A stretch of 64,000 nucleotides of DNA from Rhodothermales bacterium (GCA_963665975.1 OY762508.1:2267353-2331352); one strand, 5' to 3'. Shown: positions 1 to 29,863, numbered from the stretch's first letter. The notes: a model not told the origin generated them from the sequence alone. Program-made: numbers and translations.

Positions 1-627
1 GCGGGCGTCAACAGGTGAAGTAAACATGGGGCCGTCCACCACGCACGTGTGAAATTCGCCATTCTCACCCAGCGGGTCGACGCTTGCAGGCAGTGCAGCG
101 AGAAGCTCGCGGTCAAACCACCGTCCAGCCACATGCGCTGGCGCTCTGCGGGGATTGACGGCAGTTACGATCGCTCGGAGTCCGGAGGCGATCATTTCCT
201 CGGCAAGCACGGTGGTGTCCCGCCCCCAGATCGGAAAAATCGGAGCAATCCCGGTGCCGCGGAGCCGGTCCTCGCGATAGCGGCGAATATCTTCGAGAAA
301 AAGGTCGCCAAAGGCGAGTGTTAACGCAGTCTGGTGCCGGGGGAGCGCTCGCATGCGATCAAGGAAGCTCGTCATCGCGGCTTCATACTGCAAATTCGAG
401 CACGGATACGGTATGGGTATTAGGTGCAGCGGCACACCGAGTCGCGCAACCTGCTCCTTGAGAGCCCATATTGGCGTCGAGTGAATGGAGACGCGTTCGA
501 AATGCTCGGTCACCGTCGTAAACACACCGCGGACATCATAGCAGTCGGGTGCTTGCCGGAGGGTGTGAAGGGCCCAGGCGGAGTCCTTGCCAGAAGACCA
601 GGAGACCAGAACAGGAGTAGGGGGCAT
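1..627 (-). CDS. Dph6-related ATP pyrophosphatase (MJ0570/DUF71 adenine-nucleotide alpha-hydrolase); C-terminus cut by the window edge
   Basis: Absent from the ORF track because it runs off the left edge. Hand translation of the reverse strand from ATG at 627-625 gives MPPTPVLVSWSSGKDSAWALHTLRQAPDCYDVRGVFTTVTEHFERVSIH ... GENGEFHTCVVDGPMF. The SGKDS PP-loop and the GEFHT motif are typical of this family. The frame stays open to base 1. Confidence 0.7.
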   Translation of the reverse strand, partial: MPPTPVLVSWSSGKDSAWALHTLRQAPDCYDVRGVFTTVTEHFERVSIHSTPIWALKEQVARLGVPLHLIPIPYPCSNLQYEAAMTSFLDRMRALPRHQTALTLAFGDLFLEDIRRYREDRLRGTGIAPIFPIWGRDTTVLAEEMIASGLRAIVTAVNPRRAPAHVAGRWFDRELLAALPASVDPLGENGEFHTCVVDGPMFTSPVDAR

Positions 628-1097
628 CACGGTGCACACGACAAGTGCAGTAGGGACTGCGACCAAGGCCGCTCGAACAAGGTAGCTGTTACTTCCCAGA
701 GAATACTAGAAGATATTATAAATATGCATGTTGTACTTTATAAGTCTTGGCGAAAGCACTACAATTTGATTCTTTAGGCCCTTGTAACACCGACCAGAGT
801 TGAAATCCCATAGTGCCTTACCATACCAGGTAAATAATTCCCTAAGCAGTCGTTATTATGACGGCCATCGGTAGCTTTGAACGGGGGCAATCCCATGACA
901 GATACGGCAAGGGCACGCACAAATAGTCGACTTTCTTCGGGATCAGCGAAGTACTTCAGGGTTGATCTCGGTTATAGACAAGTGGCCGCTTTAACGTTAA
1001 GAGGTCTTCGTTCAAGATCTTGATGGGACTCTGTTATACTCTGCATAGCGAACAGAGGTAACCAAAGTGATTGCTGGTCCGGCTTCTACAACGCGGC

Positions 1098-1889
1098 ATG
1101 CTGGTCACAGATTACCACTATAACCAGGCAGAAACCCAATCGAAGCAACTCATGGATCAGATCAAGCAATACGAAACGATCGCCGACGCGTTCGCGGTCT
1201 CAATGGCGCTTCCGTTCCGCGAGGCCATCGAGCAGCACACTCTGAGAGAGCTTCTGGGAGATGTCTCCAGGGCGAACGTAGTTGACATGGCCTGCGGCGA
1301 CGGGTTCTATACACGGTGGGTTAAGCGGTCCGGAGCATTGACGGCGATGGGCCTCGATGTTTCCGTCGAAATGATTCGTCGCGCGGAAGAAATGGAACAG
1401 CGCAATCCACTCGGATGCGAATACCGGCAGTCGGATATCGCCACGGCTGTTGTGTCCAACCCCGTGGATGTGGTGATCGCTGTGTATTCCCTCGGTTATG
1501 CCCGAAGTGGTGCGCAACTCCGGCAGTTCTGCAAGGCGTGCTACCATGCCTTGCGCGAGGGTGGGCGGTTCGTCGGGCTCAACGACAACGTTCGGAATCC
1601 TCCTCCTACGGGCATCTCGTGGAGGAAATACGGATTAGAGAGATACTGTCCGAATCCACTTTCAGAGGGTGACCCGGTTCGATATACGATTATCAACGCG
1701 GACGGGCAGCGGTTCGATGTGGAGAATTTCTATCTGAAGGGCAAAACGTATGAGGATGCCTTCGAGGCAGTGGGATTCAGTGAGTTTCGATGGATCGACG
1801 TTTCGTTGGACCCAGCCGAGCATCGCAATCCGTTCTGGGATGACTTTCTGACTCACCCACCCATCGTCGGGTTTACTGCTTCCAGATAG
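1098..1889 (+). CDS. class I SAM-dependent methyltransferase
   Basis: ORF 1071..1889. Motif I is VVDMACGDGFYTRW, followed by a typical post-I/II layout. The ATG at 1098 is preferred over the TTG at 1071; the start is uncertain. Confidence 0.8.
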   Translation: MLVTDYHYNQAETQSKQLMDQIKQYETIADAFAVSMALPFREAIEQHTLRELLGDVSRANVVDMACGDGFYTRWVKRSGALTAMGLDVSVEMIRRAEEMEQRNPLGCEYRQSDIATAVVSNPVDVVIAVYSLGYARSGAQLRQFCKACYHALREGGRFVGLNDNVRNPPPTGISWRKYGLERYCPNPLSEGDPVRYTIINADGQRFDVENFYLKGKTYEDAFEAVGFSEFRWIDVSLDPAEHRNPFWDDFLTHPPIVGFTASR

Positions 1890-2523
1890 TGGCATCAGCG
1901 GCAGACGCTTCGTCATATCCGTCTGGTGATCGGCCGGTTGAGTTAGCGGTCGATTCTCGGGCGTGCCGCGCCGCGCGCATGGTAGCCCATCTGAGCGAGG
2001 ATTACTACGAGATGCGCGCCATGTTTACCAAGATCTGTACTGAGTGCGGGGCAACATGATCACGAGTGGTCCCTGCCTGTCGGATTTTACGTCATGGCCA
2101 CGGTGGGTATTTCGCGGACGTTACTGTCATACGATCCTCATGACGCGCTTTCTTCTTCTTCCTGCATGCTTCATGATCATGGTAGGCTCGTCGAGATGGT
2201 TCCTCCAGAAAATCCAGTACCCAGGATTTTCTGGTCAATTACGATGAGAATATGTCCCGCCCGCAGTTGATGGCGTGCGATGATGTCAGTGGAAGCCACG
2301 AATTGGGTCTTGCTTGATGCAGCATGGTAGAGCTAAACAGTCGCCACTGGGACAAAACAGAGCGGTAGGGCAGAGATGGCCGATCACGGCGAAATGGGAT
2401 ATGCTGCGTGTATGCCGGTAGACTGTGATGATAGAAACACGTAGGTCAACGCCACAGCAGGCCACATCTAAGCATTTCCGAAAGATCCAGGACCAACTAC
2501 CGCAGCGAGGTCGTGATGAGTGG

Positions 2524-3777
2524 TTAACCCAAGCCACGTGTCAGCACAGTGTCCATGATTGTGGCTGCCGTATCAGCCGCTTCACGGGTTACGATCATGG
2601 GTGGCGCCAGGCGTACGGCGTTATTGCCACAGCCCAGTACCAGCAGTCCGCGCTCGAAGCAGTTGCGCTCAAAAGTGCCTGCTTGTCCATGTTCCGCAAA
2701 AGCAAGGGCGAGCATGAGGCCCCTTCCGCGCACCTCGCTAATGGCATCATGGCGTGCGGCAAGCATTTGTAACTGCGCCCCGACATAGGCGCCCATCTCG
2801 CGGGCATTCTCCATGAGGTTATCTTCGACAAGGTCCAGGGTTGCCAAGCCGGCAGCGCACGCCAAGGGGTTGCCGCCAAACGTGCTGCCATGACTGCCAC
2901 GCGGCCACGTCATGACCTTATCCTTGGCCATCATGGCGCTGATGGGAAGCCCTGATCCAAGCCCTTTGCCCAGCGTTATGATGTCTGGGACGATGTCCCA
3001 CTGCTCCATTGCAAAGAAAGTCCCCGTTCGTCCCATGCCCGTTTGGATTTCGTCAGCGATCAAGAGGATGCCGAATTCGTCACACACGGTGCGGAGGTGT
3101 GCGAAGAATCCTGGTGGCGGCACGCGATGGCCACCTTCGCCCTGAATGGGCTCGACGATAATGGCGGCGACCTCCTCCGGTGTCACGGTGCGCTTGAAGA
3201 GACCGCGAAGATGGTGCTCGATACCTGCGCCATACGGCACGTGATGCACGCCTGGAAGATGTGGACCAAATCCTGCACGTTGCACCGCCTTGCTGGCCGT
3301 CAGGCTCATCGCACCGTAGGTGCGTCCATGAAACGCTCCCTCGAAGGCGATCAGGTGCGCGCGTCCGGTGTGGTAGCGCGCCAGTTTGATAGCTGCTTCG
3401 ACGGCTTCCGCCCCGGAATTGCCCAGGTAAACACGCCATGCATCTTCTCCCGGACACAGTGCAGAGAGTCGTGTGCACAGCGCGGTGTAGGTATCATAGT
3501 AGAAGTCCGTACCACAGATGTGGAGCAAACGCTCCGTTTGCCCCCGGATGCGCGCGACTACTTCCGGATGGCAGTGGCCCGTCAAGGTTACCGCAATTCC
3601 GGACATGAAGTCGAGGAATCTGTTGCCGTCCACATCTTCGATGACCATGCCCTCGCCACGGTTAACCACTAGCGGGTAGGCCTTGATAAGCGATCGGGAG
3701 GCTACGTGTCCGTCTGCTGCAATTGCAGCCTGCGCCCGCGGGCCAGGCAAATCCGTCACGATGTGGGGTAGACGCAT
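2524..3777 (-). CDS. class-III PLP aminotransferase (4-aminobutyrate/acetylornithine aminotransferase-like)
   Basis: ORF 2524..4104. The family-like sequence begins at MRLPHIVTDLPGPRAQ. Motifs seen: GNSGAEAVEAAIKLAR, IADEIQTGMGRTG and the TLGKGLGSG PLP-lysine region. The 109-codon N-terminal extension is judged spurious. The M at 3822 is an alternative start. Confidence 0.85.
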   Translation of the reverse strand: MRLPHIVTDLPGPRAQAAIAADGHVASRSLIKAYPLVVNRGEGMVIEDVDGNRFLDFMSGIAVTLTGHCHPEVVARIRGQTERLLHICGTDFYYDTYTALCTRLSALCPGEDAWRVYLGNSGAEAVEAAIKLARYHTGRAHLIAFEGAFHGRTYGAMSLTASKAVQRAGFGPHLPGVHHVPYGAGIEHHLRGLFKRTVTPEEVAAIIVEPIQGEGGHRVPPPGFFAHLRTVCDEFGILLIADEIQTGMGRTGTFFAMEQWDIVPDIITLGKGLGSGLPISAMMAKDKVMTWPRGSHGSTFGGNPLACAAGLATLDLVEDNLMENAREMGAYVGAQLQMLAARHDAISEVRGRGLMLALAFAEHGQAGTFERNCFERGLLVLGCGNNAVRLAPPMIVTREAADTAATIMDTVLTRGLG

Positions 3778-4017
3778 ACAGCTGATAGGAGAAGGGTCAC
3801 AATACGTTAGTGGGATGTTCATAGCTTGTCGGGGCAAGCGCCAAGCTTTGCTAATGCGTGTGCATAGGCGTTGTTCGGGAGAGTGAGGGCCGGCGCGGTA
3901 CCTGCCAGAATGCTCCGTCGCCGAGCGAACGTAATGCCACCGGAAATCAGCCGCCGTTACACGGTGCAGTAATCCCATGGCAGGAGCATCGCTAGCCGGG
4001 TCGGAGGCGCTTGAATA

Positions 4018-4116
4018 TACAGAATCGCAGGGCTCCGAGGCGGGAAACAGAGGCAGCCATCCACGGGTTCGGAGCACATTCTTCGAGTGTGGACCTGAAT
4101 GCATGTAGGACGTGGA
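4018..4116 (+). repeat. copy A of the ypdA-leader element (decayed)
   Basis: Core CGGGAAACAGAGGCAGCCATCCACGGGTTCGGAGCACATTCTTCGAGTGTGGAC...GGACGTGG aligns with 7700-7770 and 9833-9910. It is followed by ATG-TAG (4103-4108) and weak ypdA-like codons (TTGAAGCAGAAGCGGAATTG versus ATTGAGGCCAAGCGCAATGG). Confidence 0.5.
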
Positions 4117-4710
4117 AATTTCGGGTGTTGAAGCAGAAGCGGAATTGTTTCCAGTTTCACGATTTAGGGACTCTTGCGGTCTATATTGGCATCAGCTACT
4201 TATCCATCCCTTCTGTCACATATCCGACTGTCGGCGGCGCACGTTGAGGACCCTTCACGTGAGTATCGGTTAGGCTTGTATGCACTCTTGCAGCCTGGCA
4301 TCAGAAGTCAAAAGCGATCCACTTCGTTCACCGTGAACACGACGTGCCACGCCAGGAAATCGTTCAGTCTTAAAACGCTGCTTACTTGACAAATGCACGA
4401 TATAGCGCCAATGAAATCAGTCCTTTCTCAATCAATTGTCACATTTAGTCGTTGGGAAGCCTGATTCGGGAATCAAAATACTCCCCAAGCAGACCCAGAA
4501 AACTTGCGTTGAGGTGGAATTGCCTCTGATAGCTGTGCTTTCGATTTGCTACGACAGCATGGATGTTGGTTCGCAATTGGTCCGGCGGAATTCACAGGTC
4601 GTTGCATGGATATCGGGTGTGTGCACTATCATCGTTTCACCGGCTATCCATTTGCTTGAGGTCAGAGTATCTTAATCTCATTACGGTCGAAAAACTGCAG
4701 CATAGGCATA

Positions 4711-7563
4711 ATGGCAAGACTTTACGCGCACAACGCATGCAGGCATCTCTTGCTTCTGGCATTGCTTGGTATTGCACCAATCGCCCAGGCGCAGCCTGTG
4801 CCAACATCCCTGTCCGGAACCGTCACGGATGCCGAAACCGAGGTACCGTTGCCAGGTGCCAACGTCTACATTGAGGCTATCGCACAGGGTACAACCACTG
4901 ACGGGGATGGGGCTTACCACCTCTTCGGCCTAGCATCTGGAAGCGTCATTATTTCATTCAGCTTCACCGGATACCAAAATCAGGAAATTACGGTCACGTT
5001 GACCGCTGGAACGGCACACACTCTGGACATCGCCCTGACACCTGGCGTGGAGTTGGATCCCATTCAGGTGACGGCTGGTCGGCGACAGGCGAAGGCTCTC
5101 AATGCTCCAGCATCTGTGGACGTGGTTGGCATTAGGGATTTGAGCGAGGAAACGGGGCCGACGGCCGTAACGGCGCTACGCAATCTTGCTGGTGTTGACA
5201 TGGCACAGACGGGTTACGACCGGCAGGAAGTGGTTATTCGCGGCTTCAACAATGCGTTCACCGCAGCGCTGTATGCCCTGACGGACTATCGGCAGGCCGC
5301 CGTGGCAGCGCTTGGGGTCAATAGTCACAATATCATGCCCAGCCTTGGCATCGATTTGGAGCGTATCGAAGTAGTTCGTGGACCAGGTTCGGCATTGTAC
5401 GGTGCGGGTGTAGATGCGGGTGTCATTCACTATATCACAAAAGATGCGTTTGCCTATCCGGGCGCAACCGTTTCAGTAGCCGGTGGGGATCATTCCTTTC
5501 TTGATTTTCAGGGACGCGTTGCCGGAGTAATAGGCAACAAGCTTGGTGTTAAGGTAGCAGGAGCGTATATGAATGTGGACAATTTTCAGTTAGAGGGTTG
5601 CCCGGCGTCTGTTTTCGCTGCACGCCGTTTTGAGGAATGCCCGGATCCGCACGACGCTCAGCAGATTGCCGCATACGGTGAGCGGGAGACGGCGACGAAG
5701 CGACTGAACGTCTACGGAAGCCTGGAATACAGGTTCGGTAGCCGCACATCCCTGTTGTTCAATGGTGGCCATTCCCTCAGTTCCGGAACTACGATTACCG
5801 GTATTGGCGTCAGCCAGGCAGATAACTGGGGCTACACCTTCGGGCAGTTGCAGTTCAAATCCGGTGGCTTTTTCGCCCAAGCGTATATCAACCAGAATGA
5901 CGCAGGGGACACTTACCTCTATGCAGGGGATACGGTGGTAGATAATGGCAGGCTAGTGAATATGCAGGCACAGTATGATTTGTCCTTGGCAGGCGGGCGT
6001 GAGCAACTCGTTTTCGGCGTTGATGTAGATCTCACGCGCCCCAATACGGAAGGCACGATCCATGGTCGCTTTGAAGAAAGGGACCACATAAATGAGTATG
6101 GTGCCTACGTGCAGTCCTTGACTAGAATCGGCGACCGTCTCGAACTGATAGTCGCAGCTAGGAGCGACTACAGCAACGTCGTGGACAATATCCAGTTTTC
6201 TCCACGGGCGGCCCTCGTCTACAAACCGGCACCCGCGCACAGCATTCGGGCGACGTTTAACCGCGCCTTTTCCTCCCCGCTTGCCACGCGGGTATTTCTG
6301 GATATAGTTGCCGGACAAATTCCGGGTACCGGCATAAGACTCCGGGGACACGGTGCTTCCGAGGGATTCACTTGGGAGCGAAACACTGACTTCCTAGCGC
6401 TCGGGGCTCCAACCGATCTTGTCGCATCCAGCCTCGTGCCCGGTTCCGAGGGGGCGCCGGTTCCTGTTGGTCTGCCAACGGGCGATTTGTATGCGGCCAT
6501 TTATCGCGGACTCGCTGCCGTCCCGCCTGCAGAATTAGCCCGTCAGGTTACGGAGGCAGGCATTCCGATCAATGCCGCTACTACCGCAGTGCTTGTGCAG
6601 CTACTGAGCCCCGACGTCACGGAGGTAACCGGTTTCAGCCCTGGTGTGATGGGTCTGCTCAATCCAACGACAGCGGAAATCGAGACGTTTGTCACTGATC
6701 TGCTACCACTGCCTCCGCTTAGCCAAACGGTTTCCCAAACGTTTGAAATAGGCTACAAGGGTATCGTGAATGACCGAGTGCTAGTTGCATTCGATGGATA
6801 CTTTGGCCGAAAGAAAAATTTCATAGGTCCGCTGAGCCTGGAGACTCCCTTTGTAGTGGTGCCGACCCTGTCGCAGGACCTGACCAACGACATCGCACTT
6901 GGAATTGTGAATAACACCGTACTCGCCGGAACACTGGATGCAGCCGGATTGGCGCCCGAAACTGTGGCGGCTCTGCTCGTGCAACTAGCCGGACAATCCG
7001 GCGCGTTGCCGTCCGCTTCGACACCAGTGGCAATCGTTCAACCGGTAGAGAACAATTTAGGTGCAGGGCATGTGCCGGAGTTGATGCTCACGTATCGGAA
7101 TTTCGGAAGTATCAACTATTACGGAATTGATGCTGCAATTCAGCTGATCGCCTCGGAGAAGCTCGAATTCTTCGCCAACACGTCGTGGGTTAGCGACGAT
7201 TTGTTTGACAATGAGGAATTGAACGAACCGAGCAAGAACGTATCTCTGGCGCTAAATGCATCTCCATTGAAGATAAAGTTCGGCGGCGCCTTCCGGCATC
7301 CCAGCGGTCTCACCATCAATGGATCGGCGCGATATTCGAAGGGTTTCCCGGTGCGTTCCGGCGTTCATGTGGGGGACATTGACGATTATTTCCTCGTGGA
7401 TATGGGTGTAAGCTATAGGTTTGGCTCCCGAATGGAGGGACTGCGGATCAACCTGGGTGTCTCCAACTTGTTCAACAGCAGCCACAGGCAATTCATCGGT
7501 GCGCCCAAGATCGGCCGAGTCACAGTCGCTCGGCTCACCTATACGTTCAATTTTCCGAGTTAG
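4711..7563 (+). CDS. TonB-dependent receptor with an N-terminal CarboxypepD_reg-like domain
   Basis: 950-aa ORF. It has a signal peptide (LALLGIAPIAQA), a carboxypeptidase-regulatory-like module (SGTVTDAETEVPLPGANVYIE...TTDGDGAYHL), a plug region (VEVVRGPGSALYGAG) and a C-terminal beta-barrel ending ARLTYTFNF. Confidence 0.9.
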   Translation: MARLYAHNACRHLLLLALLGIAPIAQAQPVPTSLSGTVTDAETEVPLPGANVYIEAIAQGTTTDGDGAYHLFGLASGSVIISFSFTGYQNQEITVTLTAGTAHTLDIALTPGVELDPIQVTAGRRQAKALNAPASVDVVGIRDLSEETGPTAVTALRNLAGVDMAQTGYDRQEVVIRGFNNAFTAALYALTDYRQAAVAALGVNSHNIMPSLGIDLERIEVVRGPGSALYGAGVDAGVIHYITKDAFAYPGATVSVAGGDHSFLDFQGRVAGVIGNKLGVKVAGAYMNVDNFQLEGCPASVFAARRFEECPDPHDAQQIAAYGERETATKRLNVYGSLEYRFGSRTSLLFNGGHSLSSGTTITGIGVSQADNWGYTFGQLQFKSGGFFAQAYINQNDAGDTYLYAGDTVVDNGRLVNMQAQYDLSLAGGREQLVFGVDVDLTRPNTEGTIHGRFEERDHINEYGAYVQSLTRIGDRLELIVAARSDYSNVVDNIQFSPRAALVYKPAPAHSIRATFNRAFSSPLATRVFLDIVAGQIPGTGIRLRGHGASEGFTWERNTDFLALGAPTDLVASSLVPGSEGAPVPVGLPTGDLYAAIYRGLAAVPPAELARQVTEAGIPINAATTAVLVQLLSPDVTEVTGFSPGVMGLLNPTTAEIETFVTDLLPLPPLSQTVSQTFEIGYKGIVNDRVLVAFDGYFGRKKNFIGPLSLETPFVVVPTLSQDLTNDIALGIVNNTVLAGTLDAAGLAPETVAALLVQLAGQSGALPSASTPVAIVQPVENNLGAGHVPELMLTYRNFGSINYYGIDAAIQLIASEKLEFFANTSWVSDDLFDNEELNEPSKNVSLALNASPLKIKFGGAFRHPSGLTINGSARYSKGFPVRSGVHVGDIDDYFLVDMGVSYRFGSRMEGLRINLGVSNLFNSSHRQFIGAPKIGRVTVARLTYTFNFPS

Positions 7564-7679
7564 ACGGGAGTGCGGACATTTTGCAGGCGGATCAAATCGC
7601 CGCTTGCGAATTGCACAGGAACAGCATGACAGAACTCTCCCACATCTCCGAATGGCTCTCGTAGATTAGGGTATCCAAC

Positions 7680-7838
7680 GCAGAATCGGAGGCGCCGTAG
7701 GGTGAAACAGGGGCAACCATCCTCGGGGCTGAAAGCGCATTTTTTCGGATGCGGACCCGGATGGACGTGGTAATCATTGGAGCGGGGCCCGTAGGACTGC
7801 CCGGCGGACATCATCCTTACGGGGTTACTTGTGATTAG
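7680..7838 (+). repeat. copy B of the ypdA-leader element, with a 25-codon ypdA-derived mini-ORF (7761..7838)
   Basis: GCAGAATCGGAGG...GTGAAACAGGGGCAACCATCCTCGGGGCTGAAAGCGCATTTTTTCGGATGCGGACCCGGATGGACGTGGTAATCATTGGAGCGGGGCCCGTAGGACTG aligns with 9812-9950. The ATG at 7761 encodes MDVVIIGAGPVGLPGGHHPYGVTCD-stop. The first 13 residues match the Rossmann start of the gene at 9898. Confidence 0.55.
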
Positions 7839-7893
7839 CAAACGCGTTCATCCTATCGGGGTCTGTTTCAATGGTCCACTACTCAGGAGGACC

Positions 7894-9081
7894 ATGCGCC
7901 ATTTCTCATTGAATCACGGTAGAGTTTGGCTTTGCTCTGTCCTGGTGTGTAGTGTAGCTGCAGCGTGTGCAAATCCCGAGTCAGAAATCGGCGAGACGTC
8001 TCGCGCCATTCAGGAATTGGATGTGCAACTGCGTGACGTGCTGATCCTTGGAGCAGACGATTCCGCTTCGCCCGAATATCTATTCGGGGCGCCTCGTTTT
8101 GTCGTGACCGACAGTCAGGGTCACATTTATATAGCCGATGAGGCGGTCATGAATATCCGCTCATATGATGCTGCCGGTCATTACCTCCGTACTATTGGCC
8201 AGCGCGGACAGGGGCCTGGTGAGTTCCATAGCTTCACGGGAATGACGATCAACAGGCAGGATGAAATCATCACACTAGACAGGGGAAATGCACGGTTTAC
8301 GCGCTTCTCCCCGGAGGGGAAGGAACTGGATACGCACCCATCACGAATGTGGGCCGTGAGCCGGATACACCCATTCAGGGGAGGCTATCTCATTCTGAAC
8401 AATCATGCAGAGGGAGAAGGCGTCACCGATTACCTGTTTCGAGGCTTTAATCCTAATTTTCAGGAAACCACGGTGGTGTTTGGCAGCGCGGACGAAATAA
8501 TCGACCCGGATGAAATGCTTGAGCAGACCTCTCTATCGGCGGATCCCGGCTCCTTTATCTTCATGGACAGCGGCGTGCTTTTTGCACCGTCCCTCTACGA
8601 GGGCAAGCTCTATCTTTACACTGAGGAACAGGGGCAATGGAAGCAGGCAAGGCAGTTTCTCGGACACGTAGGCATAAGGAGATCGTATAAGAAAATTCTT
8701 GACGGCCCCATGGACACGGAGCATGTCGACGCTTTGCTCCGTTATGCCGGAAAGGATGTAGGTGCTCTGGTGCACAATAGCAGCAAAGGGCTTTTTCGCC
8801 TGCAGGATCAACATATTGTTCACTTTACCTTCTGCGAGTTCGGACAGGAGCGCCTTTTCGGTGTGGAAGTGTTCGAAGAAGACGGATCCTTGATCGGATA
8901 CGGCGTCATTGACCGAGTACCGCTAACGGCCCATGGAACGGCCAGTCTGAAGTTGCGTGTTGTGTGGAAGGATGACCAGGATCGTTTTTACATTATTGAT
9001 CAGGAAGAAAAGCCTGTAATTCGGGTTGTCGAACTGGAGTTCGGACCAATTTCCAACACTTCGGAGAAGGCCCAGAGATAA
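7894..9081 (+). CDS. putative lipoprotein, 6-bladed beta-propeller (NHL/TolB-like) fold, function unknown
   Basis: ORF 7831..9081. AGGAGG lies 5 nt upstream of the ATG at 7894. The signal/lipobox-like N-terminus is MRHFSLNHGRVWLCSVLVCSVAAAC. It has repeated G-x-IYIAD / F-x-P-x-G strand-like patterns. The fold assignment is an inference. Confidence 0.55.
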   Translation: MRHFSLNHGRVWLCSVLVCSVAAACANPESEIGETSRAIQELDVQLRDVLILGADDSASPEYLFGAPRFVVTDSQGHIYIADEAVMNIRSYDAAGHYLRTIGQRGQGPGEFHSFTGMTINRQDEIITLDRGNARFTRFSPEGKELDTHPSRMWAVSRIHPFRGGYLILNNHAEGEGVTDYLFRGFNPNFQETTVVFGSADEIIDPDEMLEQTSLSADPGSFIFMDSGVLFAPSLYEGKLYLYTEEQGQWKQARQFLGHVGIRRSYKKILDGPMDTEHVDALLRYAGKDVGALVHNSSKGLFRLQDQHIVHFTFCEFGQERLFGVEVFEEDGSLIGYGVIDRVPLTAHGTASLKLRVVWKDDQDRFYIIDQEEKPVIRVVELEFGPISNTSEKAQR

Positions 9082-9811
9082 TGCCCCCGCGTTTGGACCA
9101 GTACTAGCTGGCCTCTTCGCATTATGTTGCCATAGCTACTCGGTCGTGGACGTTCCTGGATGATATTGTTCTAGACGCTTGGCCACGAAATTGCGTCCCG
9201 CGCGGGCGCTGCGGGTATGGATGGAGTATTTCCCGCGTCCGGCCTGGCGCAGTTCGACGAGACTGGCTCCCCGTTCGGCCAGGCAGGGGGTCGCTCCCGT
9301 ACCGCCGCTGTGCCCGGATCCGTTTGGCAATCTGTCCCGCGCACCGCCCGAAACATGGCATTACGGAGAGATGGTAGGGTGCAAAGGGGAAGGTGAGCAC
9401 CTGCGCGGTCACCCACCTCCTGATAGAATAAGGAGGGTTCCCATACCCTTCGCTTGTAAGGAATCTCCTATCGCCTCGACGATTCGTAGTATGCCACGAA
9501 TCCAGCGCCATTCTGTCCTCACGGCAGACGGCCGAAATGGACGACTTCAAACGGATTCAGTATACAAATTCAGCGGAATGGGTGGGCGCCTGGTATTGCG
9601 TCATTTTCAGTTGTTTTCGAATGTCAGGCCAGTGGTTGATTGACGGGTTTGCAGATGCGTTATCAGCGCTGTGCGAAGTATCGGAGTCTCCGCGCAGTTC
9701 GGGTTTCACGTAAAGCGCTCTTCCGCGTCCAATAACGACAGCGCAACCCAGCGATGCAACTGCTCAGGATTCGTCCATCGCTTGATGCACGGCGCCCGAC
9801 TCGACTATGGA

Positions 9812-9897
9812 GATTCTCAATGCGGTTCGGCAGCGGGAAACAGAGGCAACCATCCACGGGTTCGAAGCGCACTTTTTCGAATGCGGACTGGGACGGG
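9812..9897 (+). promoter_or_regulatory. copy C: 5' leader of ypdA (candidate structured leader or operator)
   Basis: Lies immediately upstream of the ATG at 9898. It contains hairpin TTCGAA(9861-9866)/TTCGAA(9876-9881). CATCC (9851-9855) is complementary to GGATG (9896-9900), which includes the start codon. The element is conserved in copies A and B. Confidence 0.45.
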
Positions 9898-10902
9898 ATG
9901 TGTGACGTGGTAATCATCGGGGCGGGGCCCGTAGGACTGGCCTGCGGGATTGAGGCCAAGCGCAATGGCCTCGATGCGGTAATCGTGGATAAGGGCGCGC
10001 TCACCAATTCGCTGCAGGGCTACCCCCTCAACATGGAGTTCTTCTCTACACCGGAGCTTCTCGAAATTGGCGGCCATCCGTTTCCTACTCTGCGCTACAA
10101 ACCGACGCGACAGGAAACGCTCGAGTACTATCGGCGCGTGGCATTACAGGAGGATCTTCGTCTGCGCCTGTATGAGCGCGTCCTCGAAGTAAACGGGCAG
10201 AGTGGGGCCTTCACGGTCGTAACACAGAAGGGCGCCATTACGTGCCGGAAGGTGGTTGTGGCCACGGGATTTTTTGATATTCCGAACCGGCTGGACGTCC
10301 CGGGCGAGAACCTGCCCAACGTTACGCACTACTACCGGGAGCCATTCCCTTATTTCCGGCAGCGCGTTGCGGTGATTGGGGCGAAGAATTCAGCGGCCAA
10401 GGTCGCCCTCGAGTGCTACCGGCACGGGGCGACGGTCACGCTCATTCACCGCGGCAGCGGTCTGTCTGACCGTATCAAGTACTGGATATTGCCGGACATC
10501 GTAAACCGTATCAAGGAAGGGAGTATTACAGCGTATTTCAACACAAAAGTGGTCGCCATTGAACCTGATCGGCTGGTGCTGGATACGCCGGACGGACGTG
10601 TCGAAATTGAAAATGACTGGGTGCTGGCCATGACGGGCTACCGTCCCGATTATTCGTTTCTGACCACGCTGGGCATTACCATTGGGGACGATCCCGCGCG
10701 CACTCCGAAGCACGACTCAGAAACATTCGAAACCAATCGGCGCGGCCTCTATCTGGCAGGGACCGTCTGCGGTGGACTGCGCACGAGCCGCTGGTTTATC
10801 GAAAACGGACGCTTTCATGCGGGACAGATCATGCAACATATCACTTACGGAACGGTGGAGCCGCTGGCATTGCAGCAGCGGGTATGGAAGACGGCCGAGT
10901 AG
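9898..10902 (+). CDS. ypdA: YpdA-family FAD/NAD(P)-dependent oxidoreductase (putative bacillithiol disulfide reductase, thioredoxin-reductase-like)
   Basis: ORF 9754..10902. The family-like sequence starts MCDVVIIGAGPVGLACGIEAKRNGL. A second dinucleotide-binding site is VAVIGAKNSAAKVALE. Length from 9898 is 334 aa. The upstream 48 codons overlap the conserved leader and are Arg-rich. Confidence 0.75.
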   Translation: MCDVVIIGAGPVGLACGIEAKRNGLDAVIVDKGALTNSLQGYPLNMEFFSTPELLEIGGHPFPTLRYKPTRQETLEYYRRVALQEDLRLRLYERVLEVNGQSGAFTVVTQKGAITCRKVVVATGFFDIPNRLDVPGENLPNVTHYYREPFPYFRQRVAVIGAKNSAAKVALECYRHGATVTLIHRGSGLSDRIKYWILPDIVNRIKEGSITAYFNTKVVAIEPDRLVLDTPDGRVEIENDWVLAMTGYRPDYSFLTTLGITIGDDPARTPKHDSETFETNRRGLYLAGTVCGGLRTSRWFIENGRFHAGQIMQHITYGTVEPLALQQRVWKTAE

Positions 10903-10913
10903 TGGTGAACGAG

Positions 10914-13046
10914 CTACCGCGCCACGACAACACTGCGGCTTACGACGCTATGCGAGCCCGTGCCGCGAATGAAGTAGATGCCGGACGGCAGGGTGCTGCC
11001 CGCAAGCGTGAAGACATGGCTTCCTGGGGTCAAAACGCCGTCGTGCAAAAGGTGAATACGGCGGCCAAGCATGTCAAAGACGGCCAGCGTCATATGCTGC
11101 AAGCGGGGGACGCGCAGCATGAAGCGAGTCTCGGTCTGGAATGGATTGGGATGCGCGGCGCCTAACACGACGCTTCCGGGTAGCGTGTCCCGGGATCTGG
11201 TTGTTACAGAGGGCCCGTAGAGGCCGAACGCAATAGCATTCCGGGTGTCCTGGATGCCCTTAATTCCCTCTACGACATTGTATGCCGCAATACCGAAGTC
11301 AATATCAAGGTCATCGTGTGACCCAAATACTCCGTCAGGGCCGGAGCCGATGAAGGTGTGCAGGGCCGTGCTGGCATCCATGAGGTCAGTTCGATACGCT
11401 GGATGTCCCGTATGGAAGTTGGCAAAAAGATGGCCTGCCTCGTGCGAGACGATGTTACCGACCGCGGTACCGAGGGCATCAATTATGCTGGTCCCCGCGC
11501 CGAAGTCGTCCGCTTCCAATGACCCCAGCATGTCGGGACCGGTCAATCTGTCAAGGAGCACGATTGCCGTTTCCTCGGTCACAAAATTGCCTACATCTAC
11601 ACTCTCGGCAATACCGATCGTATTCAATCCCAATTCGTGGATTGTGCCGCCTATGATTATGCGACTCGTGTTCGGGTCACCCCAGGGGTCCGGGTCATCC
11701 CGACTGTTTCGAAGCTTGAGTTGAAATCCAGGATTGGCGCCCATGCGGATATCGTCTGCCAGATTTTCCGTCACCGTGGCGAGAATGCGGGTGATGACGG
11801 CGTCTTCATCGCCAGCGGGGTCCAGGCCAAGGCGGCCAAGGGATGCGGAAAGCGGAGACAGCGTGGCCATGCTGTTGCCCCCGAGGATAGCTTCCGCATC
11901 ATACACCGCGCCGTCGAAATCCAGGAACAGTGTCTGTGGCGTTTGCGCATATTCGAGCCGTGGACGGCTCCGTTGCAGGTGCAGAGTATAAGCACCATCA
12001 CCCCGCTCCACCGCGACGGCATAGGGTCCGTCATCTCTGATTACATAGGCGAGGTTGGCATTGCCGCCAAACCGCAGACCGCTTCCGAGCGGATACAGTA
12101 CGCTCAGGTCGAATGTCACGCTTATGTGCGCTATTCCGTCACCGTCAAACACAGTGATCCGGTGCGCCCATCCGTGTACGGAAATGTTTAGGATGTCCCC
12201 CGCGACGAGATCGAATCCGAAGAAGTCTACGTCACGGTCATCCACGCTGATGGTTATGTCATAGGGCCCTTCGCTACCCGCCTTCGGCCCGGAGGCAGAA
12301 TCAAATGGATCGCCTGGCCAGTCGCTGTTGATGCCGCGAACTAAGACGAAGTACTCATCCGCTGTTGGAATGACGATTTCAAGAAAGCTGTCGTGGTCGC
12401 CCCGAAATCGGTCGTCGTTCTCGAACAGGCGGACGCCGGCGCTGTTATACAGGCCAACTTTGGTGTCCAGTCGGGGATTGACATTGTGGGACGTTTCTGT
12501 TTTCGCGGTAATGACTTGCCCCGCTTCAAGACTGCCGACATGGTAAAAGTCATAGTCGCCGGTACCGATCCCTTCCCTGCCGTACGGGCCGTCGCCGATG
12601 TACGCGTCTGCTCGAATACTCTCTCCCGACACTAGGTTTGTAGCAAGAGCCAGCGGGATGGCGCCATCGTCAGCTTCTGTGATGGTGCCGAGGTCGCGAG
12701 GTGCGGGTGGTCTCAGCGTGCCAAGGAGTTCTATCTCCTGAGACCTGCCCGCAGACCAATCCGGTAACCACTCGGCAGTCGATTGCACGTCGTTCCAGCC
12801 ACGCGCATCAGCCGGCTCCTGTTCTTCGACAATCGGGTTAGCCTTGGGCAACAGCCTTTGCACTGATCTGCCAGCTTGCATGCGGGCTTGCCAGTAGGCC
12901 CAATCGGGCTCTACTTCAGGAGGAGGAAGACTGGTATAGGGGTTGGGAAGGCGATTGGAGGCCACCGGTTGCGCGTGGACCGCGAAACCTCCTTCGCTCC
13001 ACGTGAGCACGACTATGAGTATGGCGAGAGTGGCTCTGGGCGACAT
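10914..13046 (-). CDS. secreted metzincin-like zinc metalloprotease with PPC (pre-peptidase C-terminal)-like domains and a T9SS C-terminal sorting domain
   Basis: 710 aa. Signal peptide is MSPRATLAILIVVLTWSEGGFAVHAQ. It has DYDFYHV...G PPC-like segments and an HEAGHLFANFH (HExxHxxxxxH) site. The C-terminus is FDMLGRRIHLLHDGVLTPGSHVFTLAGSTLPSGIYFIRG, typical of Por/T9SS CTDs. Confidence 0.8.
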   Translation of the reverse strand: MSPRATLAILIVVLTWSEGGFAVHAQPVASNRLPNPYTSLPPPEVEPDWAYWQARMQAGRSVQRLLPKANPIVEEQEPADARGWNDVQSTAEWLPDWSAGRSQEIELLGTLRPPAPRDLGTITEADDGAIPLALATNLVSGESIRADAYIGDGPYGREGIGTGDYDFYHVGSLEAGQVITAKTETSHNVNPRLDTKVGLYNSAGVRLFENDDRFRGDHDSFLEIVIPTADEYFVLVRGINSDWPGDPFDSASGPKAGSEGPYDITISVDDRDVDFFGFDLVAGDILNISVHGWAHRITVFDGDGIAHISVTFDLSVLYPLGSGLRFGGNANLAYVIRDDGPYAVAVERGDGAYTLHLQRSRPRLEYAQTPQTLFLDFDGAVYDAEAILGGNSMATLSPLSASLGRLGLDPAGDEDAVITRILATVTENLADDIRMGANPGFQLKLRNSRDDPDPWGDPNTSRIIIGGTIHELGLNTIGIAESVDVGNFVTEETAIVLLDRLTGPDMLGSLEADDFGAGTSIIDALGTAVGNIVSHEAGHLFANFHTGHPAYRTDLMDASTALHTFIGSGPDGVFGSHDDLDIDFGIAAYNVVEGIKGIQDTRNAIAFGLYGPSVTTRSRDTLPGSVVLGAAHPNPFQTETRFMLRVPRLQHMTLAVFDMLGRRIHLLHDGVLTPGSHVFTLAGSTLPSGIYFIRGTGSHSVVSRSVVVAR

Positions 13047-13064
13047 GGGTCCGGAATAGCGGGT

Positions 13065-14978
13065 CTACCGGACAAATTCCCACAGTTTGCGGTACTGGGG
13101 ATTGGCAGGGTCACGCTCAAGCAGTCGTTGAACGTATCTCCGGGCTTCCGGCATTCTGTTCGTATTGAAATACAGCGAGGCCAAGTTTGCCAGAGACTGC
13201 TCGAGGTCGGGATCCAGGGCCAGGGCGGCAATGAAATCTTTCTCCGCCCCGGCAAAATCACGCAACAGCACACGCGCGTAGCCGCGGTTGTTGTAGGCCT
13301 CAGTAAATTTAGGATTTGCCGCAAGCACAGAGTCCAACACTGCAATGGCCTGGCGTGGAAGGTTGTCCTGGGTATAGGCCGCTGCAAGCCGACTTCTGAA
13401 CCGCAGGTGCTCGGGAGCGCGGCGCACAGCGTCCTTCAAATAGCTGCTGGCCTCCTTCGCCCTGCCGTCTACCAGAAACGCCTCCCCAATGCGGTATGCG
13501 GTCCAGGCGTCTTTGGCTATGGCTCCTGCACGCACCAACTGGATGATTGCAGAATGCTCTCCCCGTAGAAAGTGGGCCTGAATCAACGGGCCGGTGATGT
13601 TTTCAAAAGAAGTGTGGTTTCGGGCGCGCTCAAGGAGGGCAGCGGCAGAGTCCAGAAAGCCCGGGTGGTTGGTGACCTGTTCATAGTAGGTCATATATCC
13701 CCGTGCTATGTCGGTGAGCGCAGGATCCTCATCCACGAGACTGGCCAAGCGGACGAATTGCCGCTGAGCATGCTTCGCTTCAGCCGTCAGCACTTCCTCC
13801 GTGTTGCTGCCTGGTCGCCGTATAAAGTGGTCGGTAATGCGCACATGCGGTATGTCCACAGATCCCGATGTCGGCATGTGGCATGTCACACAGTTGTCCT
13901 CCGCCTCCTGGCGTTTGGCCAGGGTTTCGGTGCAGACGAGGGGTTCCGGTAGTGCGGAGTGGCACGTCTGGCAGGTCTGCCGATAGTGGTCCGCGCCGAG
14001 CGTTTCGATGCTGACATGCGGATCGTGACAGGTGATGCACGTGAGCGGTTCGGTGTTCTGCGCGCGTGATTCCAGGAAACATTCGCTCTGCCGGAGCCTG
14101 TCCGGGTGGGAGGCCATCACGAATTGCCGCAGGCTGTCTTCGTAGCGCGGCCAGAACACGTTTTCAATATCCACGAGGCGCTTTCCCGGGCGAAAATCGG
14201 CGAAGGTGAGCCCCTCCTCTGGAACTGCCGCACCCTGCAGGTGGCAACCCTGGCAGATGTCGAATTGGAGATCAATGGGCAGCTTGCCGGGATTTACGAT
14301 CGTGTTCTGCCGGTCAGCGCCGGATTGAATGGCCTCTATGTGCACACTGCCGGCCCCATGGCAACGCTCGCAGTCGATGCCGTGCGGTACGGCGTCGTAT
14401 TTGTTTTCCGATCCCTCTACATAGGTCGGCATGGCGTTGTGGCACGTGATGCACTTGAGCGGAATCGGGCGGTCAAAGCGAAAGTTGTTCCCGTCCTGGA
14501 AGCCGGGAGGCAAATCCCACCGTCTGTCCTGAGCATACCACGTCATGGGCATCTGGTAAAGGTAGCCTCCTACGTCCATGATATGCGAATTGGTATGCTG
14601 GCCCGAGCCGACGATGTAGTCGATTTTCTCTGAGCGTTGATACACCGTGTCGCGACCTGACAGGCGGTACTCCTTGATGAAAAGGTCCTGTCCGCGATGA
14701 AAGGCCTGATAGTACAGATCCTTGTGAGGGTCGTATACCGGTGCGGGATCAGCAAAGTCTGCCGCACTGTTTTCCAGCGTTGCCGCTTCCCATGACCGCC
14801 CCATTTGGGACAGGGTATAGCTGGCGTACTTGTCGGCATGACAACTCTTGCATGCCTCGATGCCTACGTAGGCCGCATCCAGGTTGCGGTAAGGAACGGG
14901 AGCCTCGTCCGGGGAGGCGCATGCAGCAAGCAGTAACAGGAGCACATGGCACACGTGCGTGGCGCGAGTGACCGTCAT
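13065..14978 (-). CDS. heptaheme c-type cytochrome fused to C-terminal TPR repeats (paralog 1)
   Basis: ORF 13065..15035. It has seven CxxCH motifs: CKSCH, CITCH, CERCH, CQGCH, CITCH, CQTCH, CVTCH. The lipoprotein-like N-terminus is LLLLLAACASP. The C-terminal TPR-like repeats include AYNNRGYARVLLRDFAGAEKDFIAALALDP. The start could be at 14978 or 15035. Confidence 0.8.
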   Translation of the reverse strand: MTVTRATHVCHVLLLLLAACASPDEAPVPYRNLDAAYVGIEACKSCHADKYASYTLSQMGRSWEAATLENSAADFADPAPVYDPHKDLYYQAFHRGQDLFIKEYRLSGRDTVYQRSEKIDYIVGSGQHTNSHIMDVGGYLYQMPMTWYAQDRRWDLPPGFQDGNNFRFDRPIPLKCITCHNAMPTYVEGSENKYDAVPHGIDCERCHGAGSVHIEAIQSGADRQNTIVNPGKLPIDLQFDICQGCHLQGAAVPEEGLTFADFRPGKRLVDIENVFWPRYEDSLRQFVMASHPDRLRQSECFLESRAQNTEPLTCITCHDPHVSIETLGADHYRQTCQTCHSALPEPLVCTETLAKRQEAEDNCVTCHMPTSGSVDIPHVRITDHFIRRPGSNTEEVLTAEAKHAQRQFVRLASLVDEDPALTDIARGYMTYYEQVTNHPGFLDSAAALLERARNHTSFENITGPLIQAHFLRGEHSAIIQLVRAGAIAKDAWTAYRIGEAFLVDGRAKEASSYLKDAVRRAPEHLRFRSRLAAAYTQDNLPRQAIAVLDSVLAANPKFTEAYNNRGYARVLLRDFAGAEKDFIAALALDPDLEQSLANLASLYFNTNRMPEARRYVQRLLERDPANPQYRKLWEFVR

Positions 14979-15239
14979 GGGAACGCGGGTTATCGTACGC
15001 GAAGGCTTGATGTACACGGTCGTCTGCATGATCACGAAATCCGATTAGTCTCTCGGCGCGAGCGGGGAGAGACGGAAATACGCTCCCGGAATGTATTCTT
15101 GTTCAGGCAGTATGTTCATTCGAAGCTCTTCTCAGATTCTGTCCTGACTGTCAACACACTGGTGTGTCCAGACTGAGGGCCCAGAGATGGCCGGAGGCCA
15201 GAATTCCTATAATGTGCGTCGAACAGCATACGGGAGGGG

Positions 15240-17384
15240 CTAAATCGCATCGATGATCTGTTGCGCGAGCGCATTTCCAGGATCGATTGTGCGCGCCTCT
15301 TTGGCGTATGCACGCGCTTCTTCGTAGTCTTCGTTGCGGAAGTGCGCCAGAGACAACTTCAGCAGGGCTTCCAGGAACGTGGGATCGACCTCTACGGCGC
15401 GTGTCAAAAATACAATGGCCCTGCCCAGATCATCCTGATCCAGATAATAGGTCCCTAGGTTGCTAAGCGCGGTAGCGCTCTCGGGGGCGGCCTCGACGGC
15501 CCGCCTAAACTGTTGCCCGGCCTTGTCGAGTTCGTGCATGCTGGCATATAACATGCCCAGGTTGCCCAATGCTCGCGGATGATCGGGGTCGAGTTCGAGG
15601 GCGCGCAACAAGGCACGCTCTGCGTTCTGGAACGCACCCTGCTGCAGAAAGGCTGTGCCCAGATTGTAATGAGCGATAGCGAGGCGCGGCATTTCTTCCG
15701 CCGCCATACTGTATTGCTGCGCGGCCTCGTCCAGGCGTCCACGAGTTTCCAGGAAACGGCCAAAGTTCAGGCGGATGTCGGCCCGGGCGGGCACATGCTC
15801 CAGAGCGCGCCGGTACAACTGTTCGGTTTCCTCCGGATTGCGGCCGGCGAGCTCGTAGGCCTGTGCCAATGCATTCAGACGCTCCGGGACATCCGGATTA
15901 TGCAGTATGGCCTCGGCCAATGGCGGGATGGCTTCCTCTACGCGGCCAAGGCGCCAGTGGGTCAACCCCAACTGATATTCTGCCTGTCCGGTAGTATCGC
16001 TTGCTTCCGCCAGAGATTCCCTGATCAATTCGATGCCTTTCTCGAGGGCTAGCGTGTCGGACCGTTGCGTCCCCAGTACTATGTAGGAGCGCGCCAGATA
16101 ACGCCGGCCGTCCATGCTCTCGCGGTCCTGTTCGAAGTAGGGTACGAGTGTGGGTGTGTCATGCGATGCGCGTGGCGCGGGCAGCTCTTCTGCGACGACA
16201 CGGATCCAATGATCGGTGAACGAAGCATGCGGCACGTCTTCCGGCTCCACGCGTGGCATGTGGCAGGATATACAGTTTCCGGTGTCCGTGTGCGGGCTGG
16301 CATCGGTAGTGAAAGTTATCGTGCCTGCTCCATGGCAGGACAGGCAGGCTTCGTTGAAATACTCAGGTCCCTTGTCCCTAAACCCCTCGTGTGGATTGTG
16401 GCAGGTAATACAGGTCAATGGGTTTGGCTCCTGCGCCGTGGCAAGAAAGCAGGCGCTGCGCTTCATTCGATCCGCGTGCGAAATAACATCGATAGCCCCG
16501 GGATCCATGGATACCTCTTCGTAAAACAGGGCGAGATGATCCTCCAGGCGCTGAGAGGGTCTAAAATCAAACGGGCCCCGCCCGTCCCGCAGAATCGACA
16601 CCGTAGTGTGCAGGTGGCACTGTTCACAGACGTCCAGTTTCAGGTCCTCATCCAGATGCGCGGGGTTAACGATCGTGTAATCGACCTCGGAGGCAGGATC
16701 GGGACTGGAGAGGCGTTCCTCTACGTGCAGGCTGCCAGGTCCATGGCAACGCTCGCACCCGATTCCCTCGGGTACGTCGATATACTTGCCTTCGACAAAG
16801 GGCACCGTCTCCGGATAGCTGTTGTGGCAAGCCATGCAGCGGTCCGGCACTAGGCGGTCGAACCGTTTGTTGTGGAATTCGTAGCCCGGACTAAAGTCCC
16901 ACCGTGCCTTTTGCGCATACCAGGTAAGTGGCAATTCGTACAGTCGCCCGCCGGACTCAGACAGGTAGGTGCGCGCCGCATGGCCGCTGCCGACAACGAA
17001 GTCCATGCGCCGAGGGAGCCGATGGGTTAGTTCGCCAGTTGAATCAACGCGGTATTCTTCTTGCCAGAAGTCACCGCCTTGTTCATACACACGATAGTAG
17101 AAGCCGCTTTCTTCATGCCAGAGGGGAGGTGCGTCAAAATTCTCGACAGTGTTCTCTCGCGTTAGCCGATAATAGGACTGTGCCATACCGTGCTCCTGGA
17201 AGCCTCGCCAGATGTCTTCGTGGCAGTCGAAACATGCCGAAGACCCGATATACTCCGCATTCACATTGCGAAATGCCGTGATATCACCTGGGGATTCCCT
17301 GTCTGGCAAGCGGTCTCGCGTCGGACTGCAGGCCACGACTGTAACCGCGAGTGCTAGGACGAGAGCACACCGGATGCGCGCCAT
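15240..17384 (-). CDS. heptaheme c-type cytochrome fused to C-terminal TPR repeats (paralog 2)
   Basis: ORF 15240..17792. The plausible start is MARIRCALVLALAVTVVACSP at 17384. It has seven CxxCH motifs: CFDCH, CMACH, CERCH, CEQCH, CITCH, CLSCH, CISCH. It is colinear with the gene at 13065 (for example LPLTWYAQKARWDFSPGY versus MPMTWYAQDRRWDLPPGF). The TPR tail is longer. Confidence 0.8.
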   Translation of the reverse strand: MARIRCALVLALAVTVVACSPTRDRLPDRESPGDITAFRNVNAEYIGSSACFDCHEDIWRGFQEHGMAQSYYRLTRENTVENFDAPPLWHEESGFYYRVYEQGGDFWQEEYRVDSTGELTHRLPRRMDFVVGSGHAARTYLSESGGRLYELPLTWYAQKARWDFSPGYEFHNKRFDRLVPDRCMACHNSYPETVPFVEGKYIDVPEGIGCERCHGPGSLHVEERLSSPDPASEVDYTIVNPAHLDEDLKLDVCEQCHLHTTVSILRDGRGPFDFRPSQRLEDHLALFYEEVSMDPGAIDVISHADRMKRSACFLATAQEPNPLTCITCHNPHEGFRDKGPEYFNEACLSCHGAGTITFTTDASPHTDTGNCISCHMPRVEPEDVPHASFTDHWIRVVAEELPAPRASHDTPTLVPYFEQDRESMDGRRYLARSYIVLGTQRSDTLALEKGIELIRESLAEASDTTGQAEYQLGLTHWRLGRVEEAIPPLAEAILHNPDVPERLNALAQAYELAGRNPEETEQLYRRALEHVPARADIRLNFGRFLETRGRLDEAAQQYSMAAEEMPRLAIAHYNLGTAFLQQGAFQNAERALLRALELDPDHPRALGNLGMLYASMHELDKAGQQFRRAVEAAPESATALSNLGTYYLDQDDLGRAIVFLTRAVEVDPTFLEALLKLSLAHFRNEDYEEARAYAKEARTIDPGNALAQQIIDAI

Positions 17385-17525
17385 GGTATTGAGGGAGAAA
17401 AGCGGCAAGATCGCCCCGTTGTCAACGGCCTTGAAGGTGATTGCGTGTACGCACAGCCGGTTAGGAGCTCCTTGAGACTCTCGCACGTTGGGACTACCTT
17501 CCGTCATCCTGATTCCAATAAGATC

Positions 17526-29790: not shown

Positions 29791-29863
29791 GGGGCTATAG
29801 CTCAGTTGGTAGAGCGCCTGAATCGCACTCAGGAGGTCAGCGGTTCGACTCCGCTTAGCTCCA
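29791..29863 (+). tRNA. tRNA-Ala (anticodon CGC)
   Basis: Hand-folded cloverleaf GGGGCTA-TA-GCTC-AGTTGGTA-GAGC-G-CCTGA-ATCGCAC-TCAGG-AGGTC-AGCGG-TTCGACT-CCGCT-TAGCTCC-A. It has the G3:U70 alanine identity pair. CCA is not encoded. Confidence 0.9.

Follow-up and report, generated by a model that had tools for sequence, protein, structure and literature searches.

Within the window, i.e., the whole stretch of 64,000 nt from a Rhodothermales bacterium that was analysed, the sequence around ypdA occurs three times. Reading along the plus strand there are a class-III aminotransferase gene (on the minus strand), a first copy of the ypdA upstream region (copy C), 585 nt of non-coding DNA, a TonB-dependent receptor gene, a second copy (copy B), a beta-propeller lipoprotein gene, about 720 nt of non-coding DNA, and finally copy A running into ypdA itself (Table 1). 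As direct repeats, the three copies all lie on the plus strand, and homologous upstream sequence precedes three non-homologous genes, those of the TonB-dependent receptor, the propeller lipoprotein and YpdA. The ypdA product starts with MCDVVIIGAGPVGL and scored 461 bits against TIGR04018, for which the cut-off is 339.9. The propeller protein consists of 395 aa with a lipoprotein-type signal peptide. The gene call in L201, a Logan contig from a close relative, uses the identical start, and the aminotransferase is called there with 417 aa. Copy C lies approximately 640 nt upstream of the receptor start. The two longer intergenic stretches, 4126-4710 and 9082-9799, hold no credible gene and none was called in L201; their ORFs gave no match to Pfam or NCBIfam and look non-coding, and a six-frame look for gene relics in 4100-4760 and 9060-9830 revealed no convincing coding segment.

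Table 1. Features of the ypdA locus in window coordinates, unless another sequence is named. Alignment A3 contains copies A, B and C, copy B of L201, and the orthologous regions of L208 and L209.
Feature	Position	Strand	Basis
Class-III aminotransferase gene, presumed ancestral divergent neighbour of ypdA	2524-3777	-	Pfam Aminotran_3
Copy C, left (ancestral-position) copy of the ypdA upstream region	4010-4125	+	blastn, pattern match
Lineage-specific inserted block between C and A, ~5.7 kb	4126-9799	+	absent from empty-site relatives
TonB-dependent receptor gene, first inserted gene	4711-7563	+	Pfam CarboxypepD_reg, Plug, TonB_dep_Rec_b-barrel
Copy B, diverged duplicate of the ypdA upstream region (~-80) through ~codon 17	7681-7812	+	blastn, alignment A3
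Promoter-like core of B	7704-7732	+	alignment A3
Mini-ORF of 25 codons, ypdA N-terminus relic and unrelated 12-codon tail	7761-7838	+	sequence reading
DUF5128/NHL six-bladed beta-propeller lipoprotein gene, second inserted gene	7894-9081	+	Pfam PF17170
Copy A, working ypdA promoter-like region, short leader and ypdA start	9800-9950	+	pattern match, alignment A3
GAAAC-N15-CGGGTT(CGA) sites	window 9837-9865; L001 9964; L002 9946; L208 434; L209 390; L210 6177		
ypdA, putative bacillithiol disulfide reductase (YpdA-family), source of the duplicated sequence	9898-10902	+	TIGR04018

Several features were recorded elsewhere in the window. A cobalamin riboswitch (Rfam RF00174) was found at 53781-54029 on the minus strand (80 bits, E 4e-18), with a 610-aa minus-strand ORF, 51843-53675, just downstream of it. 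An SRP RNA at 63046-63153, minus strand, had its best match in the "Bacteroidales small SRP" model (93 bits), here in a Rhodothermales genome. A tRNA gene at 29791-29863 is followed after about 600 nt by a toxin-antitoxin pair of DarT and a macro-domain, DarG-like protein (30447-32188). DarT is a ssDNA thymidine ADP-ribosyltransferase, and the tRNA gene together with the pair may represent an island at a tRNA gene.

The three copies were compared by blastn. Copy B (7699-7807) matched copy A (9832-9947) with 80% identity over 117 nt (E 5.5e-24), a separate search against the ypdA start region gave 81% over 112 nt (E 3e-24), and 7681-7768 matched 4020-4106 of copy C with 72% over 89 nt. Copies C (4010-4125) and A (9800-9921) were 74% identical over 122 nt (E 4.6e-17). 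Judged by these scores, the homology of B to the true ypdA start is far beyond chance, and the segmental duplication of the ypdA upstream region and first codons, which an earlier sequence-only reading had proposed as the source of B, was borne out. Copy C does not figure in that reading of B.

YpdA of the window is at most 77% identical to proteins from genomes of the species-level collection, and an exact-protein look-up returned no record of it. L201 is 99.47% identical over window positions 1226-10694 and carries all three copies; the arrangement is therefore real and not an assembly artefact. Among the relatives it is also the only one that retains both genes flanking B (99.5% identical), and B is present there. 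The sequence-only reading had asked whether relatives carry the element between the receptor and propeller genes; this one does, and the next ones, L208, a scaffold from TARA, and L209, assembled independently in Logan, have neither gene at the site. In both, YpdA has 94% amino acid identity to that of the window. L208 is a relative with about 87% nucleotide identity: its positions 400-10576 match window 9800-19998 at 86.9%, and positions 1-509 match window 3611-4119 at 79.5%, the left flank of copy C being collinear with this part. The N-terminus of the aminotransferase is encoded at L208 167-3 with 93% identity, and with 95% in L209, and it is separated from the divergent ypdA by 325 nt containing a single leader. 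In the more distant L002, a complete chromosome, the aminotransferase gene and ypdA are 98 nt apart, and in L001 the aminotransferase operon is likewise divergent from ypdA. From the empty site in L208 and L209 and the adjacency in L002, the region of approximately 4126-9799 is taken as a lineage-specific insertion at the 5' end of ypdA. The direct repeats thus flank DNA that is missing from the empty site of the relatives, as attachment-site repeats do. The G+C content of the inserted block is slightly lower, 0.50-0.57 as compared with 0.57-0.60 in the flanks. No homologue of the receptor or the propeller was found near ypdA among the loci of 80 relatives. Propeller homologues in other Rhodothermales (51-59% identity) occupy unrelated neighbourhoods, and no ypdA-like leader was found upstream of them. 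In most Rhodothermales relatives (L003-L022 and others) tadA, encoding tRNA adenosine deaminase, directly precedes ypdA with a short spacer; in the clade of the window ypdA is instead divergent from the aminotransferase gene.

The ypdA leaders of the relatives do not align over their full length, and nhmmer searches of the 80 ypdA loci with a profile of the three copies matched mainly the Rossmann-fold coding part. A short pattern was shared. GAAAC-N17/18-GTT occurred upstream of ypdA in 8 of the 80 loci, where its overall frequency in the loci would predict 0.19, and it recurs wherever ypdA has its own upstream region, starting 37 to ~70 nt before the ATG. The longer form, GAAAC-N15-CGGGTT, was present in L001, L002, L208, L209 and L210 as well as in copies A and C; L210 was fetched after the pattern had been defined, and with L208 and L209 it gives further independent cases. 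The second, -10-like box reads CGGGTTCGA in A, L208, L209 and L210, CGGGTTCGG in C, and CGGGGCTGA in B. The spacer between the boxes varies in sequence among lineages, i.e., in the ypdA leader family two conserved boxes upstream of orthologous genes enclose a non-conserved spacer. Two conserved boxes at fixed spacing and at variable distance from the start codon make the motif read as a promoter. Promoters of ECF sigma factors (group 4) have GGAAC or GAAAC at -35 and CGT or GTT at -10 with a spacer of about 16-18 nt, and SigR/SigH-type thiol-stress promoters follow GGAAT-N18-GTT. The ypdA core resembles ECF promoters in its GAAAC-N17/18-GTT boxes, in its position at -37 to ~-70 from the ATG and in standing before a thiol-redox gene. 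It departs from them in that B is without GTT, in that the site in L002 and L038 is at the same time an inverted repeat, GAAAC...GTTTC, and in that neither a cognate sigma nor an anti-sigma gene came to light. From the resemblance to the consensus and the conservation we infer that GAAAC-N15-CGGGTT is an ECF-sigma-type promoter; an alternative would be a palindromic site for a dimeric regulator. The L002 motif sits within the 98-nt divergent intergenic region that is common to ypdA and the aminotransferase gene.

Other searches around the motif gave the following. No sigma-70 r2/r4 protein, as encoded by an ECF sigma gene, was seen among the scanned small ORFs of the window. In an unbiased search for enriched 5-mers upstream of ypdA, most of the signal came from the conserved 3' end of tadA and, after filtering, from related Acidobacteria; among the 24 closest loci without tadA, GAAAC ranked third with 7 loci against 1.25 expected, which is suggestive only. 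A metagenome scan with the 17-base core GAAACAGNGGCANCCATCC returned at least 120 loci, all of which were chance matches, and the three-copy nhmmer profile extended none of them. Predictions of sigma-70-type promoters and intrinsic terminators in 3700-10100 gave nothing above shuffled expectation and nothing at the copies, and the Bacteroidetes-type -33/-7 and sigma-54 consensus sequences fitted poorly on comparison by eye. A search of the literature for ypdA promoters brought up nothing that bears on this phylum.

The promoter-like core is intact in copy A (GAAAC at 9837-9841, CGGGTTCGA at 9857-9865, ahead of the ypdA ATG at 9898) and in copy C (GAAAC at 4044-4048, CGGGTT at 4064-4069). Copy B kept the -35-like GAAAC (7704-7708), followed at 7724-7732 by the degenerate CGGGGCTGA, which replaces CGGGTTCGA by three substitutions. 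The triplets that begin at positions +17 to +19 after GAAAC read GGG, GGC and GCT, and GTT is absent. Neither GAAAC-N15/16-CGGGTT nor GAAAC-N17-19-GTT was matched in B, and ECF-type -35 and -10 boxes at a spacing of 17-18 nt were found in A and C and not in B. No terminator-like site was found between the receptor and propeller genes (7564-7893), and B is therefore probably transcribed by read-through; if such a transcript is made, the reading frame in B could be translated.

Direct reading of the sequence at 7400-8100 confirmed the landmarks named earlier for B, i.e., CCATCC at 7717-7722, GGATGG at 7759-7764, an ATG at 7761 that opens MDVVIIGAGPVGLPGGHHPYGVTCD, and the stop, TAG, at 7836-7838. 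The mini-ORF does precede an AGGAGG (7885-7890) and the ATG (7894) of the lipoprotein gene, as had been described; the gap between its stop and that ATG, given as 56 nt, was counted as 55 nt. Over the 13 ypdA-derived codons B differs from A by two substitutions only, both synonymous. In alignment A3, the ATG of B aligns with an upstream, out-of-frame ATG, found within GAATG in copy C and in the L208 orthologue, and B is here 7 nt shorter than L208 by a deletion, which takes up 8 gap columns. It appears that this deletion fused the out-of-frame ATG of B to codon 3. The ATG of B is thus probably not the ypdA start codon, and the "start" would itself be a product of decay. The coding relic in copy C is dead, as its ATG (4103-4105) is directly followed by TAG (4106-4108).

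The copies have diverged in different parts. Upstream of the -35-like box, identity to L208 was 0.71 for A, 0.62 for B (plus 12 gap columns) and 0.88 for C. In the core, from -35 to -10, the values were 0.93, 0.79 and 0.89, respectively, in the leader (UTR) 0.78, 0.80 (plus an 8-column gap) and 0.69, and in the coding part 0.98, 0.89 and 0.62. From these values it would seem that each outer copy keeps what it still needs and decays elsewhere. Overall, B is about 79% identical to L208, and four-fold sites of ypdA, used as a neutral yardstick, are 23% diverged, so that the divergence of B from the single-copy orthologue is close to neutral. The coding part of B is somewhat better kept, 89-91% identical to the orthologue as compared with a neutral expectation of ~77%. 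This excess could reflect a younger age of B, gene conversion with A, or weak constraint.

Comparison with L201 gave a finer view of recent change. Of 50 differences, 42 fall in 6160-8229 (~2% as compared with ~0.1% elsewhere), which suggests recombination import of this tract from a more diverged strain. Synonymous divergence within the tract was 0.033 for the receptor and 0.025 for the propeller. B and its surroundings belong to the most variable stretches between the two strains, with 2 changes in 121 nt of the B core, 5 in 39 nt of the mini-ORF tail, and 4 in the 55 nt before the propeller start. All five changes in the tail are non-synonymous, none is synonymous, and the length of the mini-ORF and its stop codon are unchanged. 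The mini-ORF had been proposed to act as a regulatory upstream ORF; the all non-synonymous tail and the lack of a terminator-like site in 7564-7893 speak against that. Copy C shows zero differences from L201, and the low divergence extends across its whole flank. The N-terminal third of the propeller (7894-8229) has 8 non-synonymous and 2 synonymous differences (pN 0.031, pS 0.025), which points to relaxed or diversifying selection.

A structured RNA leader was looked for in several ways. Rfam gave no match across the element at gathering score, and none in 3800-10200 even at E<=5. The copies folded no better than their dinucleotide shuffles (z of -0.30 for C, 0.05 for B and +1.69 for A). The RNAalifold consensus had -8.4 kcal/mol with a covariation term of 0.06. 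In alignment A3, which with six sequences, five of them distinct, has low power, pairs were counted for the anti-start helix combined with either candidate hairpin; there was one double change in 13 pairs, located in C and not in B, and 268 of 500 shuffles reached the observed covariation; for the hairpin drawn in the sequence-only reading there were zero double changes, and all 500 of 500 shuffles did so. CCATCC and GGATGG do pair in the minimum-free-energy fold of B. The two boxes enclose CCATCC, however, in a spacer that is not conserved: L208 has CCGTCC instead and L210 lacks the element, which, if the motif is a promoter, would lie upstream of the ypdA transcription start. L208 is one base short in the 3' arm of the CGCA/UGCG hairpin, and through the 7748 G>C difference L201 loses a pair in each of the two candidate hairpins of B. 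An H-type pseudoknot of two overlapping hairpins was discarded on loop length. No support was thus found for a structured RNA leader in B: the claim that B retains the leader hairpin was not confirmed, and the compensatory changes attributed to it came down to the single one in C, at a level of covariation that shuffles equal.

The explanation that we consider best, with a probability of roughly 0.75, treats B as a duplication scar, a copy of the ypdA promoter region and first ~17 codons that has no function and is slowly eroding. The ancestor would have had one common intergenic region between two divergent neighbours, the aminotransferase gene on the minus strand and ypdA on the plus strand. 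In the present lineage the receptor and propeller genes would then have been inserted at the very 5' end of ypdA, each insertion duplicating ~130-170 nt of the target and leaving three direct repeats in the order C, receptor, B, propeller, and A with ypdA. Copy A would have retained the promoter-like core and the coding sequence, and copy C the upstream context and the promoter-like core. The middle copy, B, would have lost the -10-like box and acquired several indels, the 7-nt deletion among them, and its shortened frame would read on into unrelated DNA as far as the first stop. Both the mini-ORF and the complementarity of CCATCC to GGATGG would then be by-products of the duplication history. 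A neutral scar had been the fallback of the sequence-only reading, and it is now favoured by the near-neutral divergence, the lost -10-like box and the lack of an RNA-structure signal. Against a scar it may be said that B has lasted about as long as the two lineages, its own and that of L208, have been separate, that its codons differ from A synonymously only, and that the mini-ORF is open in both strains. The duplications may have arisen by illegitimate insertion of a duplicative kind, by integration, through a single crossover, of circles with a ypdA 5' fragment, or by tandem site-specific integration.

If any copy has been put to use by the inserted genes, copy C is the more plausible candidate, and B would be a passenger relic. 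The intact 4044-4072 would then drive the receptor gene and, by read-through, the propeller gene, a possibility to which we give somewhat less than even odds. GAAAC-N15-CGGGTTCG is kept exactly in C, its upstream context retains 0.88 identity to L208, it is oriented toward the receptor gene, it does not differ from L201, and no terminator-like site was found from C to the receptor gene or from the receptor to the propeller gene. The distance of ~640 nt to the receptor start weighs against it, however, as the intervening 585 nt may hold the receptor's own promoter. The conservation of C is equally explicable by the promoter region of the divergent aminotransferase gene, and the low divergence from L201 is common to the entire flank. 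Put more broadly, the duplicative insertion may, tentatively, have wired the receptor and the lipoprotein into the promoter regulon of the bacillithiol disulfide reductase through C, and conceivably through residual activity of B. If true, C (conceivably also B) would be a working copy of a conserved ECF-type thiol-stress promoter, and the locus would be a natural case, and one that can be dated, of promoter capture through target-site duplication, a sister lineage still having the empty site.

A further alternative concerns origin only. The repeats might be attachment-site relics of two tandem site-specific integrations, each element arriving with its own diverged ypdA 5' end; ypdA would have stayed intact because each element brought its own ypdA promoter and 5' end. 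In its favour, the two gene cassettes are separate and lie between direct repeats, three in all and similar in extent, the copies are 20-28% diverged from each other, which is about as much as from the orthologue of another lineage, and the insert is slightly lower in G+C. In addition, A differs from L208 upstream of the -35-like box and C does not, as expected if the left part of A came with the insert. Ordinary decay of unconstrained parts explains this divergence equally well, however, and no integrase or recombinase gene was found in or beside the block, nor were inverted repeats or mobile-element signatures seen. We regard such an origin as doubtful.

Least probable of all is that B itself is a captured regulatory element through which the propeller gene would come under control like that of ypdA, be it a promoter or an RNA leader with hairpin, anti-start pairing and upstream ORF: B does precede the propeller start, by 55 nt and in the correct orientation, with GAAAC kept, CCATCC and GGATGG able to pair, an ORF open in both strains and codons differing from A synonymously only, but the conserved feature of the leader is the promoter-like motif, whose -10-like box does not vary among A, C, L208, L209 and L210 and carries three substitutions in B, the fold and covariation equal shuffles, CCATCC is not conserved in orthologous leaders and would precede the transcription start, strain L201 breaks the hairpin and changes the peptide tail non-synonymously only, a terminator or attenuator partner was not found, and propeller homologues elsewhere lack such a leader.

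With a scar as the preferred reading of B, the locus is a cleanly resolved insertion, with an empty site, three direct repeats and a differential decay of the copies by their remaining role. The GAAAC-N15-CGGGTT motif upstream of ypdA in Rhodothermales offers a lead to the regulation of a bacillithiol redox gene outside Firmicutes, and copy C a concrete candidate for natural promoter capture.

Compared with known systems, the 25-codon ORF in B recalls leader-peptide or upstream-ORF control in that it ends 55 nt before the start of the next gene. B differs from such control in having no terminator/antiterminator pair or regulatory codon run, and its peptide is not conserved and is absent upstream of propeller homologues. 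Three gene-end direct repeats, two cassettes and an intact target gene resemble the attachment sites of tandem genomic islands. Unlike in these, the gene was targeted at its 5' end, promoter included, and not at a 3' end or in a tRNA gene, no integrase was found, and the cassettes are single genes. The locus does not belong to any RNA family, to the leader-peptide attenuators or to the integrase-bearing islands.

Among described phenomena, the closest to the three-copy locus is promoter reuse by putative mobile promoters, i.e., homologous upstream regions before unrelated genes (Matus-Garcia, Nijveen and van Passel, 2012; commentary PMC3575422); the commentary cites the Cit+ case of E. coli as an example of promoter capture. 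As in putative mobile promoters of that description, an upstream stretch of more than 100 nt recurs at 72-80% identity before two unrelated genes of the same genome, and the copies of the ypdA leader are without IS or Rfam association. Unlike the promoters described there, the copies at this locus reach into coding sequence, the direct repeats bracket the inserted genes at the donor locus itself, and B has lost its -10-like box and looks like a by-product of insertion and not like selected rewiring. B is a gene-start relic such as rearrangements leave, and it should be given no annotation as a small protein or a regulatory RNA.
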